A stretch of 64,000 nucleotides of DNA from Alphaproteobacteria bacterium (GTDB lineage: Bacteria; Pseudomonadota; Alphaproteobacteria; Rs-D84), in the NCBI GenBank assembly GCA_033345235.1, contig JAWPOC010000014.1, positions 73,085-137,084 of the forward strand, in the 5' to 3' direction. Positions 18,166 to 21,588 of this stretch are shown here, piece after piece. Position 1 is the first letter of the stretch; each line of letters starts with the position of its first letter. Below the pieces are notes generated by a model. That model saw only the letters and a list, made by a program, of their open reading frames with translations, was not told the origin of the DNA and did not search any database. A program made the position numbers and the translations under genes.

Positions 18166-18450
18166 TTGCCTGATTTTTATAGTTTCGTTATAATGCAAAT
18201 GTCACTGGGGGCATCCAGTGATGGGGTGTCAAGACCCGTATAACAGCGTCTGAGCAAGAAATCAGTGCGCCGATTGGCGTATTTTTTACGCCCAGATGAA
18301 AAATAAACTCCTGACCGGTGAAAAAGGTCAGGAGGGCTGCGAATATATCGAATAAGCACACAATTCTGTTAATTGTCTTGAACCTCCTGACCACATTGAA
18401 TAACTAATGCGTGTGGTTTCTTTTTTAACACGAAAGAAAGGAATCAGGGG
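18166..18450 (+). promoter_or_regulatory. sigma70-type promoter plus conserved structured 5' leader (copy A) upstream of the small-secreted-protein gene
   Basis: The -35 TTGCCT (18166-18171), a 17-nt spacer and the -10 TATAAT (18189-18194) are present. The leader contains the hairpins CACTGG/CCAGTG and CTCCTGACC/GGTCAGGAG (18308-18334). A second CCTCCTGACC (18383-18392) runs into a terminator-like hairpin CCACA...TGTGG plus T-run (18391-18427). The region is about 90% identical to 40668-40951. Confidence 0.5.
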
Positions 18451-18657
18451 ATGAGACTGTTTGTATTTTTAATTTTAATTTTCACATCATCGGCATCTGC
18501 CGCCAGTGTGGCGTCTGTGCGTTATGTCGACGAATGCGTCGCAACCAAGGTCAGTATGGTCGAAGGTACTAATAACCAGATGAAAGGCATATATAATGTC
18601 ACAGGCTCTGGATATATGGATGTTCCAACGCCAGACTTACCAGATTTTCCAGAATAA
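18451..18657 (+). CDS. small secreted protein, paralog A of a 3-member family
   Basis: 68 aa. It has a signal peptide MRLFVFLILIFTSSASAAS. It is paralogous to 40952-41155 and more distantly to 46053-46316. Confidence 0.6.
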   Translation: MRLFVFLILIFTSSASAASVASVRYVDECVATKVSMVEGTNNQMKGIYNVTGSGYMDVPTPDLPDFPE

Positions 18658-18668
18658 TACGGGGGTGG

Positions 18669-21173
18669 ATGATGTTACGTAAAATATTATTTGTGATTTT
18701 TGGGTTGTTTATATCTGTTAACGCATATGCGATTAAACCTGCATACATAGACCCCAATGGTCATGCAATAAATGTTCAATGGCTGCATGAATTTATAAAA
18801 CAAGAACATGGTATCGATATTCCATATGGTTCGGACTTAGATTCCCCGAAACAAGTTGTAAATATGGAATATATGTTGAAAATCGTGGACATTGCGAACC
18901 AGTATTTAAACAAAGATGCGCCGAATTGGGTTCGAACGACGTATGGGGAAAATCCGGAATATGCGACAAAACAGGTTGCAAACACTGCCGCCGGTATATA
19001 TTGTGTTCGTAATTTGATAGAGCATTATTATTTCACTGTAACGACGACGGCAGACACGACCAGTTTTGAATTTAAAATTGGTGCCGCCGGCACATATCAT
19101 GTTGATTGGGGGGATGGTACACGCGACCATTATGATAAAACAGATACAAATCTGCGAACGATATCACACACATTTGCGTCTGCAGGTGCTCATAAAATTC
19201 GCATTGGCGGATATTCCCGCGCATATGGTGGTAACGCCGCGATAAGTTTTTCAGGAAATGTCCAATTGGCGGGTATCGCAGGCAGTTTAGGCAAGATTTT
19301 TTCAACATTAAAACCATCTTCCAGCCCAAGATTTACCGCAACATTTCTAAATTGTTCTAATTTAGAAAGTGAAATCCCACCGGAATTATTTAGCGGTATT
19401 CATACTTATGCAGCCACAGCAATTTTTCAACACACATTCCAAAATTGTTCTAAATTAAGTGGTGAATTACCGTCAAAATTATTCAGCGGTATCAAAGGTA
19501 CTGCATCATGGATGTTTGCATATACTTTTTACGGTTGTCGCGGGTTATCTGGATCTATACCGCCCAGATTTTTTGGGAATTTATCTGGTTCATTACAGTT
19601 TTGTATGTTCCGAGGCGTATTTTATGGTTGTTCTGGATTAACAGGCACAATCCCAAATGATTTGTTTCATGGATTAACACAGCGTCCATCATGGCATTAT
19701 GAGTTGGGCTATGTTTTTGAAAGTGCTTTTATGTATTGTTCTGGTTTAAGCGGTTCAATCCCACCCGATTTATTCAGATTCAAAGATAATGTTCCCCCAG
19801 AACAAGTTATGTTTACAGATACTTTTAGCGGGTGCACAGGATTGTCAGGTGAAATCCCAGGCGAATTATTTGCATCGATACGTGGTGCACCTAAAAATTC
19901 TACGTTTGCGGCAACCTTTGCAGGGTGTAAGAATTTGACTGGAATCCACAAGGATTTATTCAAGTACATAGAAGGTGTCCCTGCAGCAAATATGTTTTCG
20001 GCTACGTTTTCAAATTGTTCCGGATTACAAGGCAGTATTCCGCCAGAACTGTTTGCAAAAATTTCAGGTAAACCAGCATCTGGTATGTTCCAATATACAT
20101 TTCGTGGATGTTCGAGCATAAGTGGTACAATACCGGCAAATTTATTCGGTACATATAATTTACCAGAACATGTTCCAGCACCAAGTATGTTTGCATATAC
20201 TTTTAGTGGGTGTAAAAATCTGACAGGTATTTCGCCCGATTTATTTCGCGGGATTCAGGGCGCACCTGCCGCTGATATGTTTTCAAACACGTTCGCAGAT
20301 TGTACAAATCTGCAGGCTATCCCAGTTGGACTATTTGATGACATATCTGGGCCGGCCGCCATCAGAATGTATCAAGCAACGTTCAAAGGTTGCACTAATA
20401 TGCAAGGGTATATACCTTCAAAATTCTTTGGTACTTTTACAGATGGTGTATCACAAGAAAGTGTCCCACAAATTAATATGTTTAATTCGACCTTTAGTGG
20501 TTGTACAAATCTGGGAAAACCCCTGTCGGATTCTGTGACCCCAGAATATATTTTGGCAGGTTATGCAATCCCAGCAGACTTATTCTGGGGTATCAAGGGA
20601 CAACCGGTCGGTGCAATGTTTGCAAGTACTTTTAGCGGTTGTGCAAATTTATCTGGTAACATACCAGAACTGTTATTTAAAGATATCCAAGGAACCCCAG
20701 CAGATAGTATGTATCAAGGTACGTTTGGCGGGTGTTCTGGGTTAAATGGTTCTATACCGCGCAAATTGTTTGGCGATATTGATGGTAATCCAATAAATAT
20801 GATGTTCCATGGTACTTTTAAGGGGTGCAGTGGTTTAAGTGGCGCAATCCCAGGGGATTTATTTGGAAATTTATGGGGTGCGCCTGCAACTTATATGTTT
20901 TACGATACATTTAACGGTTGCAGCGGATTGGAATCTGTCGAAGATGGTTTGTTTGGCTCTATTTCTGGCGATATGAAGTATTATATGTTTGCATGGACAT
21001 TTAATGGTTGTACGTCTTTGACGGGGGCGTCCCCAAAAGTATATGTCGCAGAAGAGGGCGTATACAAGTATATGTACGAAGTTTGGCCCAATGCCACAAA
21101 TGGGCAAGTCCCAGCAGCCTACAGGGGTACCAAATTTACAGACTGGGCACAAATTCCGGCCATATGGAAATAA
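18669..21173 (+). CDS. secreted protein with ~17 tandem ~30-aa BspA/LRR_5-like repeats
   Basis: It has a signal peptide MMLRKILFVIFGLFISVNAYA. The repeat consensus is TFsGCsnLsGsIPxxLFxxIxGxPAxxMFxx. The gene starts 11 nt after paralog A behind a GGGGGTGG RBS. A terminator follows at 21176-21200. Confidence 0.7.
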   Translation: MMLRKILFVIFGLFISVNAYAIKPAYIDPNGHAINVQWLHEFIKQEHGIDIPYGSDLDSPKQVVNMEYMLKIVDIANQYLNKDAPNWVRTTYGENPEYATKQVANTAAGIYCVRNLIEHYYFTVTTTADTTSFEFKIGAAGTYHVDWGDGTRDHYDKTDTNLRTISHTFASAGAHKIRIGGYSRAYGGNAAISFSGNVQLAGIAGSLGKIFSTLKPSSSPRFTATFLNCSNLESEIPPELFSGIHTYAATAIFQHTFQNCSKLSGELPSKLFSGIKGTASWMFAYTFYGCRGLSGSIPPRFFGNLSGSLQFCMFRGVFYGCSGLTGTIPNDLFHGLTQRPSWHYELGYVFESAFMYCSGLSGSIPPDLFRFKDNVPPEQVMFTDTFSGCTGLSGEIPGELFASIRGAPKNSTFAATFAGCKNLTGIHKDLFKYIEGVPAANMFSATFSNCSGLQGSIPPELFAKISGKPASGMFQYTFRGCSSISGTIPANLFGTYNLPEHVPAPSMFAYTFSGCKNLTGISPDLFRGIQGAPAADMFSNTFADCTNLQAIPVGLFDDISGPAAIRMYQATFKGCTNMQGYIPSKFFGTFTDGVSQESVPQINMFNSTFSGCTNLGKPLSDSVTPEYILAGYAIPADLFWGIKGQPVGAMFASTFSGCANLSGNIPELLFKDIQGTPADSMYQGTFGGCSGLNGSIPRKLFGDIDGNPINMMFHGTFKGCSGLSGAIPGDLFGNLWGAPATYMFYDTFNGCSGLESVEDGLFGSISGDMKYYMFAWTFNGCTSLTGASPKVYVAEEGVYKYMYEVWPNATNGQVPAAYRGTKFTDWAQIPAIWK

Positions 21174-21588
21174 TAAAAATGCCCAAATTGGGCATTTTTA
21201 TTTTATTGTTTTATATAATCCAGATGGGGTTTGGATGGTTATATTGCGCAGTCCAATCGCGCGCTTGCACAATTGTACGCATGTCCAAATATCGCGTGTA
21301 TTTATATTGTTTAACATATCACCCGTCAGATATACAAATCGCCATCCATATCGCTGTAAGATTCTTATATCTCGCATATTTAATTTGATTTTTACGATAT
21401 TATTATGTGATACAAATTGATGCATTACCAATGTGTTATTATGCACAGATATTGGCGCACAGTGCTTTATTTTCCCGCATAATATTTTCGGCAGTATTTT
21501 CGATGTTTTATCAGAAAAAGCGATGATTATCATATTTTATCCTTAGTTTTAAAAGTATCGCCGGTGTATTTGCCGGCGATGTTTTCAA

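Follow-up and report, generated by a model that had tools for sequence, protein, structure and literature searches.

The 64,000-nucleotide (nt) stretch of DNA analysed here, referred to as the window (assembly GCA_033345235.1, contig JAWPOC010000014.1, positions 73,085 to 137,084; an alphaproteobacterium of the Rs-D84 lineage), carries a two-gene cassette for a small and a large exported protein, preceded by a leader RNA which is the most unusual part of the locus and is undescribed in Rfam 15. We suggest that this RNA is a cis-acting attenuation switch controlling a conditionally expressed exported binding-protein pair, a reading to which we assign a probability of about 0.6. The RNA would represent a new, riboswitch-like family of terminator/antiterminator leaders, and the large protein a leucine-rich repeat (LRR) protein with a 31-residue unit derived from DUF285. 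An earlier note on the locus, made from the letters and an open reading frame (ORF) list (the sequence-only reading), had described the gene pair and its repeats; it missed the covarying leader RNA, the PKD-like and helical N-terminal domains of the large protein, and the family to which the small protein belongs.

That the leader forms an RNA structure can be stated with high confidence. The leader of about 250 nt folds better than shuffled sequence (z = -4.7), and it is shared between loci: it is 72-84% identical at the nucleotide level to sequences in 10 other fetched loci, where it lies mostly directly before genes of the LRR family, the proteins encoded at those loci being only 35-45% identical. 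RNAalifold applied to 13 sequences returned 42 base pairs, 22 of them with double-sided changes. The long-range helix P2 (helices are listed in Table 1) pairs GGGG-UG-UCAAGA (18223-18234) with UCUUGA-A-CUCC (18376-18387), and four consecutive pairs in it occur as two to three pair types each, none of them broken; a local hairpin, GGGG...CCC at 18223-18238, was dropped as it is the long-range P2 that covaries instead. Three helices were added by eye to the RNAalifold structure, giving the architecture in Table 1. In a MAFFT alignment, which is independent of the model, 92.8% of cells were paired compared to 30-49% in slid controls, 24 of 48 pairs were compensatory, and none of 500 shuffles reached any of the observed measures. 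The loop of P5, 15 nt in length, is near-invariant (GAAUAUAUYGAAUAA).

A covariance model detected 28 copies in the window and 77 genome loci taken together; three of these lie in the window, the first of them scoring 187.7 bits. A core-motif scan of metagenomes returned 106 stretches, of which 80 were fetched and yielded 89 copies found by the model. Across these 89 copies, 94.7% of cells were paired and 41 of the 48 pairs compensatory, with 850 compensatory cells (about 110-140 in slid controls) and a covariation score of 0.524 (0.05-0.09 in the controls). Because G-U pairs are abundant on the sense strand (GU 51, GU 70, UG 24), the structure is specific to that strand. At the gathering threshold, Rfam 15 detected only two tRNAs in the whole window; at E<=1 nothing relevant was found in 18000-22300, and at E<=5 no family recurred among nine other loci. 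Two subthreshold matches, sRNA-Xcc1 (31.6 bits against a gathering threshold of 53) and isrK (20 bits), were judged to be chance. A search of the literature found no paper joining Rs-D84 with a riboswitch.

A second set of base pairs makes the leader a candidate switch. The 3' strand of P4, GGUCAGGAGG, is perfectly complementary to CCUCCUGACC, a segment made up of the 3' end of P2 and the bases that begin the terminator stem. This alternative helix is perfect over 7-11 bp in all 80 of the 80 copies compared, with a mean of 9.5 (minimum 7), compared to a mean of 8.3 bp for P4 and of 7.8 (maximum 8.25) for a permuted control. The two strands change together and fall into five matched types, GGUUGGAGG/CCUCCAACC, GUCAGGAGG/CCUCCUGAC, GGCAGGAGG/CCUCCUGCC, UGCGGGAGG/CCUCCCGCG and GGCUGGAGG/CUCCAGCC; a 1-nt deletion is shared by all three strands together, and the third copy in the window shows two further compensatory changes in the alternative helix. 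Since both of the mutually exclusive helices are under selection and one of them dismantles part of the terminator stem, the arrangement has the signature of attenuation, a mechanism we propose with moderate confidence. As computed, the element thus combines a structured, covarying 5' leader with exclusive terminator and antiterminator folds, as expected of a riboswitch. For the window copy, the compact-plus-terminator fold has an energy of -79.3 kcal/mol, the unconstrained optimum -80.1 kcal/mol and the alternative fold -68.9 kcal/mol; given these energies, the RNA would terminate by default, and read-through would depend on an effector or on kinetic control.

We read the locus as an expression cassette in three parts, belonging to a gut alphaproteobacterium with a reduced genome that resembles Candidatus Enterousia/Rs-D84, and propose the following sequence of events. 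A sigma-70-type promoter would start transcription at the leader RNA, at about 18200, the predicted first base of the RNA. We call this promoter because its position before the RNA is conserved, a matching -35/-10 pair being found 5-8 nt upstream of the leader in more than 10 other loci, and not because of a promoter scan. If the RNA adopts its compact fold with the P7 terminator, transcription would stop; if the 3' strand of P4 is instead taken up by the alternative helix, the polymerase would read through. An effector, either a small molecule or a factor, would shift the balance between the folds and so decide on transcription of both genes, with a second messenger, an ion, and a protein or other factor as open candidates. 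The first gene would then supply a small Sec-exported protein, which probably needs a partner in order to fold, and the second a Sec-exported protein with a helical N-terminal domain, a PKD-like domain and an LRR solenoid of 18 units. We infer the existence of the effector and the direction of regulation, as we do the export, surface location, binding function and partnership of the proteins; what the computations show are the RNA structure with its covariation and conserved alternative helix, the ORFs, the LRR fold and its repeat, and the sizes of the families.

The genes found downstream of the RNA are consistent with a role in cis. An ORF on the same strand, with a strong Shine-Dalgarno sequence, lies downstream of every copy and usually starts 10-45 nt past the U-run. 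A signal-peptide-like start is present in 53 of 93 distinct first ORFs (~57%) according to a crude hydropathy test, with a few more false negatives; other first ORFs encode XRE-type helix-turn-helix regulators, Bro-N proteins, the HsdM subunit of a type I restriction-modification system, and an ABC exporter. Three predicted viral contigs from IMG/VR also carry the RNA (L189:5457-5628, L190:8442-8615 and L191:5464-5684), the downstream genes there encoding a Bro-N protein, an ABC exporter, and a protein that by eye looks Rha-like at its N-terminus. The leader of the host appears to be used by phages or prophages of these bacteria.

Among described regulators, a close resemblance is shown by terminating riboswitches and by attenuators in which the closing helix competes with an antiterminator. 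Like them, the RNA is a 5' leader with a covarying multi-helix core and an intrinsic terminator, its exclusive alternative helix shares a strand with the closing helix, and it occurs in tandem, in many copies per genome and on phage contigs. In terms of regulon the closest is the cyclic di-GMP (c-di-GMP)-I riboswitch (GEMM), which is multi-copy and controls surface, motility and phage genes. However, the RNA matches none of the 4,227 Rfam families, the c-di-GMP classes and the T-box included; its alternative helix also unfolds an internal hairpin, P4, beyond the closing helix; and, in contrast to classical metabolite riboswitches, it precedes exported and accessory genes rather than a metabolic pathway. 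Factor-dependent antitermination leaders comprise the T-box, RAT sites of the PyrR/BglG type, and the EAR/put and LoaP leaders. These are likewise cis-acting and govern read-through into operons that are often accessory or surface-related, but for the present RNA Rfam gives no match, nothing resembling a variable specifier position was noticed, and a candidate binding protein was not identified.

Tandem pairs of the leader, about 30-85 nt apart before a single gene, were seen at three loci (L132:8688-9109, L143:8164-8592 and L126:6033-6414), an arrangement known from some riboswitches and T-boxes. At several loci contigs end inside the RNA (L010 at both ends, L184:1-177, L185:1-189, L109:1-145 and L147:1-139), as would be expected of a repeat whose many copies interrupt assembly; the number of copies per genome is therefore probably underestimated. 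The optional hairpin P3a inside P3 (18266-18292, GCGCCgauuGGCGU-AUUUUUU) resembles an internal terminator. The window copies and some relatives contain it; L062, L023 and L005 lack it, as do, by match length, many of the metagenome copies.

The cargo of the proposed switch at this locus is a pair of ORFs encoding 68 and 834 residues on the same strand, separated by 11 nt, exactly as the sequence-only reading had described them. Both N-termini show a positive charge, a hydrophobic stretch and a small-x-small motif (ASA before A in the small protein, AYA before I in the large one), with cleavage sites by eye after MRLFVFLILIFTSSASA and before AS in the small protein and after MMLRKILFVIFGLFISVNAYA and before IK in the large one. 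Both proteins thus look like carriers of Sec type I signal peptides, in line with the co-oriented pair of exported proteins proposed earlier. In the large protein, residues 1-28 are modelled by AlphaFold2 (AF2) with a predicted local distance difference test score (pLDDT) below 50. The N-terminal domain consists, in the model, of three 'short strand plus helix' units with YV/YI-type motifs, and the next domain is PKD-like, with seven strands. The window copy matches PKD_4 only weakly (E 0.34, 11.4 bits, below threshold), while 29 of 30 homologues match Pfam PKD or PKD_4 (PF00801 / PF18911; best E 1.8e-8) and the family profile finds the PKD-like chain 4xed in PDB at E 0.005.

The remainder is a tandem repeat. 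Between residues 226 and 778 an F-x-x-C anchor occurs 18 times, at intervals of 31, 30, 31, 36, 32, 31, 30, 31, 34, 30, 30, 37, 46, 31, 31, 31 and 30 residues; the spacing is 30-31 in 12 of 17 intervals, the rest containing insertions, so that three to five units carry one. The median unit length is 31 amino acids (aa), the mode 30-31, and the consensus is MFxxTFxGCsgLsGxIPxxLFxxIxGxPAxx. Self-identity peaks at lag 31 (0.215), lag 30 (0.145) and lags 61-62 over a background of about 0.055, which bears out the periodicity that the sequence-only reading had seen by eye; its estimate of about 17 repeats of about 30 aa holds for the period and the consensus, and the count and median become 18 and 31. 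The usual length of an LRR unit is 20-30 residues, which places a median of 31 at or just past the upper edge. An AF2 model made with a 30-sequence family alignment, as had been proposed for a check on the solenoid, has a mean pLDDT of 89.7 and a predicted template-modelling score (pTM) of 0.83; it gives a curved solenoid with one short β-strand per unit, the defining feature of the LRR superfamily fold, and on the basis of this model we predict with high confidence that the 834-aa protein is an LRR protein by fold.

The relation of this repeat to named LRR families is less direct. Pfam and NCBIfam models recognised no repeat family in either the 834-aa or the 68-aa protein, giving only the weak PKD match; LRR_5 (PF13306) and DUF285 (PF03382) did not match the window protein or any of 30 homologues at E<=1; and the family profile, when searched against PDB sequences, returned no more than weak matches to PKD and FLS2. 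An exact-sequence look-up of the 834-aa protein returned no record. A connection is provided by homologue P0099, in which two flavours of repeat occur in one chain, 'LF-x-G-I-S-G-A-P-A-x-x-MF', the type found in the window, and 'LF-S-G-I-D-T-S-S-A-T-D-T-S-x-MF'. Pfam DUF285 recognises the second (residues 557-677, 34.1 bits with a cut-off of 25), and this segment can be aligned in register, with about 40% identity (E 2e-30), to the repeats of the window protein, with a 3-residue gap exactly where 'DTSSATDTS' stands for 'G-x-PA'. Because of this in-register alignment, the 31-residue unit may be regarded as a derived, lengthened relative of the DUF285/BspA-type repeat. The window repeat itself falls outside the DUF285 and LRR_5 profiles, and its proposed link to DUF285 is transitive, through P0099.

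DUF285 we take to be a 26-residue bacterial surface repeat (NCBI name 'BspA family leucine-rich repeat surface protein'). The window repeat shares with it the common core MF-x-x-(T)F-x-x-C-x-x-L, and in both cases the units are arrayed in tandem in proteins exported by host-associated, small-genome bacteria. However, the period is 30-31 rather than 26, 'I-x-G-x-P-A' stands in place of 'W-D-T-S-x-V-T', and there is an additional 'G-x-I-P-x-x-L-F' segment. The BspA/TpLRR-type LRR_5 proteins (4fs7, 4fdw, 4h09 and TpLRR 6mlx) differ in their period of about 23 and show no profile match. As to the plant-specific LRR ectodomains (FLS2, RGFR1), they are locally similar in 'G-x-I-P-x-x-L-F', as reflected in the weak FLS2 sequence match, but have 24-residue units and only 16-19% identity; the plant-like motif is probably convergent, with no evolutionary link past the LRR superfamily. 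The sequence-only reading had seen a BspA/LRR_5-like but distinct class with a period other than that of LRR_5. Its distinctness, its relation to BspA, the lack of a curated profile match and the difference in period, which extends to DUF285, are upheld, the nearest curated family by sequence appearing to be DUF285 and not LRR_5. We therefore consider the 31-residue repeat a distinct LRR class missed by current Pfam and NCBIfam models.

The earlier expectation that such a protein would be out of place in an AT-rich alphaproteobacterium finds no support in its distribution. A word-indexed search found 627 LRR relatives, the best 120 of which are unnamed or called 'hypothetical protein', and an exhaustive search of representatives clustered at 50% identity found 2,207 clusters at E<=1e-3, with 616 at the stricter cut-off of E<=1e-30. 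Among species-representative genomes, relatives are encoded on 224 stretches. The best 80 of these come almost all from metagenome-assembled genomes (MAGs) named 'Candidatus Enterousia sp.', 'Alphaproteobacteria bacterium' or 'uncultured Rickettsiales bacterium', from human, ruminant, bird and termite guts, with several MAGs among them holding 5-8 LRR loci each. The LRR protein is thus typical of the Candidatus Enterousia/Rs-D84 lineage, in which the family is multi-copy, and is one member of a large, diversified paralogous family. Candidatus Enterousia belongs to order Rs-D84, has genomes of 0.75-1.0 Mb, and lacks a tricarboxylic acid cycle and respiratory chains while encoding few standard transporters (PMC12306168). 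Among the relatives are giants of 6,000-7,600 aa (P0121-P0124, P0163, P0174 and P0188) with up to 28 matching stretches to a PKD-plus-LRR query, which suggests repeated PKD-plus-LRR modules in one chain.

The small protein likewise belongs to a family. A profile search found no fewer than 365 clusters, of which the best 120 measure 64-149 aa and are unnamed or 'hypothetical', all named ones coming from Alphaproteobacteria MAGs, and among the matches listed several genomes hold multiple copies. The consensus of the mature region is SIPSxxY(V/M)xxxV...KVDTSxxANQTMAGTYxVSGTxxVPTPxLPxAE. The search of related genomes for the pair, which had been called for, located small-protein homologues immediately before an LRR gene at 11 or more loci; L186-L188 show a 71-aa gene, a 15-nt gap and an 837-aa gene, and the NCBI tags R8N24_03075 and R8N24_03080 are adjacent. 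On the strength of this gene order the two proteins may act as partners, and any role assigned to the small one is of low confidence. Pfam and PHROGs searches with seven members of the small family and the N-terminal domain of the large protein gave nothing significant; a tail-fibre-like nature of the small protein, suggested by a resemblance of its pattern YVDxxV...KVD...QTMAGTYxV to tail-fibre repeat motifs, is accordingly not supported.

Several observations count against the switch and its exported pair, and should be set against the evidence above. The alignment of 89 metagenome copies was fitted with the model and so leans towards the structure. The promoter scan found 11 promoter-like sites around the cassette where 16.4 were expected, i.e., no enrichment over shuffles. 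The window copy favours the terminator fold over the alternative one by about 10 kcal/mol. The genes downstream of the RNA are heterogeneous and do not point to one ligand or pathway, and no ligand or binding factor can be named. With regard to the proteins, the signal peptides were judged by eye; the large protein shows no anchor, β-barrel, lipobox or sorting signal, its surface display being assumed; AF2 models the small protein alone as helix-plus-coil at low confidence (pLDDT 70.6, pTM 0.24); and the link between the two consists of gene order and one weak profile match, in which 'signal peptide + SIxSxxYVxxxV' of the small protein resembles 'signal peptide + xxNVEYIHxxI' of the LRR protein with a probability of 85%.

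A wider role could be imagined, in which the RNA is a new riboswitch class or factor-responsive attenuator reading one global signal in dozens of copies per ~1-Mb genome of gut symbionts resembling Candidatus Enterousia, a master RNA regulon in bacteria left with little conventional regulation. It would switch much of the exported or surface proteome together with prophage regulators and defence genes, with the 31-residue LRR family as its main cargo, a variable surface towards host or partner. We offer this extension tentatively, as possible and rather doubtful.

Where the large protein ends up is a separate question. It is most likely a binding protein, adhesin or receptor-like, directed towards host or partner organisms, a function assigned with low confidence, as is its display on the surface. 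Alternatively it could be periplasmic or released as a soluble effector, given that it has a type I signal peptide only, with no lipobox, β-barrel, autotransporter or sorting motif, and that genes of a type IV secretion system (T4SS) adjoin the cassette. However, this T4SS neighbourhood is not kept in other genomes, and LRR families that are large, paralogous and diversified typically consist of exposed, interaction-facing proteins, so that we think a periplasmic or soluble effector somewhat unlikely.

As for the RNA, it could be the product of an independent, trans-acting small-RNA gene, with the downstream genes served by their own promoters. The element does have a promoter and a strong terminator of its own, the terminator fold is the thermodynamic optimum, CCUCC motifs resembling an anti-Shine-Dalgarno could target mRNAs, and it is multi-copy. 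We nevertheless hold this to be improbable, since the short distance from the U-run to the same-strand ORF, typically 10-45 nt, leaves no space for a further promoter, and a pure small RNA would not need an exclusive helix with compensatory changes kept in 80 of 80 copies.

More improbable still is an element acting as DNA (a recombination site, a mobile promoter cassette or a repeat resembling miniature inverted-repeat transposable elements), the structure then reflecting palindromic DNA. Its many copies, the contigs that often break inside it, the accessory and prophage-type genes it precedes, the identical hairpins flanking the cassette, and the ~88% identity that window copies 1 and 2 share as far as a sharp boundary would all fit such a scenario. 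However, G-U pairs of the sense strand are C-A mismatches on the other, which argues for selection on the sense transcript, the long-range helix, nested hairpins and U-run are typical of RNA, and neither terminal inverted repeats nor target duplications were seen to flank the RNA itself. Least probable of all is a phage-derived receptor-binding module, such as a tail-fibre or tailocin component: the leader does occur on three IMG/VR contigs and before Bro-N genes, but PHROGs and Pfam gave no significant match for seven members of the small family or for the N-terminal domain of the large protein, both proteins carry a Sec signal peptide, a feature normally missing from virion proteins, yidC and T4SS genes rather than phage structural genes surround the cassette, and several chromosomal copies of the family lie beside housekeeping genes.

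A cis-acting attenuation switch upstream of an exported protein pair is thus the reading we prefer. Candidatus Enterousia/Rs-D84 bacteria have yet to be cultured and occur widely in the guts of humans and animals, and the exported 31-residue LRR family with its small partner provides obvious candidates for their interaction surface. Both this protein family and the leader RNA extend across the lineage and are described in no database. The leader, an orphan RNA switch with many copies and over 100 natural variants, could reveal the signal that these reduced-genome bacteria monitor. Since current Pfam and NCBIfam models miss it, the LRR family merits a profile model of its own.

Table 1. Features of the cassette, its leader RNA and related elements, numbered from the first letter of the window.
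Feature	Position	Strand	Basis or remark
Intrinsic terminator of yidC	18121..18147	+	22-nt core as in the cassette terminator
Sigma-70-type promoter, TTGCCT (-35), 17-nt spacer, TATAAT (-10)	18166..18194	+	
Structured leader RNA, ~225 nt	18200..18425	+	RNAalifold, pair counts, covariance model
P1 hairpin	18201-18209/18214-18222	+	
P2 long-range helix, encloses P3-P6	18223-18226/18384-18387 and 18229-18234/18376-18381	+	
P3, encloses optional hairpin P3a and a U-run	18247-18252/18293-18298	+	
P4	18310-18316/18326-18332	+	
P5, conserved loop GAAUAUAUCGAAUAA	18336-18340/18356-18359	+	
P6	18361-18364/18372-18375	+	
P7 terminator, then U-run	18389-18395/18412-18418	+	
Predicted antiterminator strands GGUCAGGAGG 18326-18335 (3' strand of P4) / CCUCCUGACC 18383-18392	18326..18392	+	
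Small exported protein gene, 68 aa (~51 aa mature)	18451..18657	+	ORF list
Large LRR protein gene, 834 aa	18669..21173	+	ORF list
Putative signal peptide of large protein, MMLRKILFVIFGLFISVNAYA	18669..18731	+	read by eye from sequence
N-terminal domain, ~residues 29-119	18753..19025	+	AF2 secondary structure; conserved in homologues
PKD-like β-sandwich, ~residues 120-205, motif VDWGDGT	19026..19283	+	AF2 and homologue Pfam matches
18 tandem LRR units, residues 221-803	19329..21077	+	periodicity, AF2, in-register alignment
C-terminal cap WPNATNGQVPAAYRGTKFTDWAQIPAIWK and stop codon	21078..21173	+	conserved in homologue alignment; confidently modelled
Cassette-ending intrinsic terminator, 14-bp hairpin then T-run	21172..21212	+	
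Second leader copy, promoter ~40668-40696	40702..40925	+	176.9 bits; small gene follows, no LRR gene
Second small-gene paralogue, 75% identical, no LRR gene after	40952-41155	+	
Third small paralogue, 87 aa, ~42% identical	46053..46316	+	no leader RNA upstream, no LRR gene downstream
Third, divergent leader copy	11223..11459	-	25.7 bits, E ~1e-5; architecture and alternative helix kept

Further copies within the window differ in what follows them. The promoter, the whole leader (~255 nt) and the first ~50 codons of the small gene are duplicated at 40660-41100, a duplication that was noticed because antisense ORFs of the two small-gene copies looked alike; the antisense ORF itself (18188-18394) was dropped as a coding candidate, copies 1 and 2 differing by 1-2-nt indels. 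The two are about 88% identical to around codon 50 of the small ORF and unrelated thereafter (40660-41155), and the second locus looks like a truncated or recombined cassette. The third leader copy stands upstream of two minus-strand genes for signal-peptide proteins (10243-11202, 319 aa, and 9308-10261, 317 aa), in which no Pfam family was found.

The dedicated promoter, leader and terminator that the sequence-only reading had attributed to the pair were all recovered. Upstream of the cassette lies yidC (16557..18122; Pfam 60KD_IMP and YidC_periplas). The 22-nt core AATGCCCAAATTGGGCATTTTT is identical in the yidC terminator (18124-18147) and the cassette terminator (21177-21200), these being the only two exact copies in the window compared to 0.06 expected by chance, with 9288-9304 listed alongside. 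The identical cores, together with the site after yidC not being conserved, suggest an insertion or duplication at the terminator hairpin. Synteny of LRR genes with yidC or virB10 is not kept in other genomes, and the T4SS neighbourhood was not found beside their LRR genes.

Given its rpoB/rpoC-sized ORFs and a G+C content of about 40%, the window is taken to be chromosomal. Downstream of the cassette, on the minus strand, follow a 113-aa ORF without family assignment and then the T4SS genes (22219-26951), which encode a VirB10/TrbI-like protein of unusual length (816 aa), a VirB9/CagX protein with a SPOR-like tail, and VirB8.

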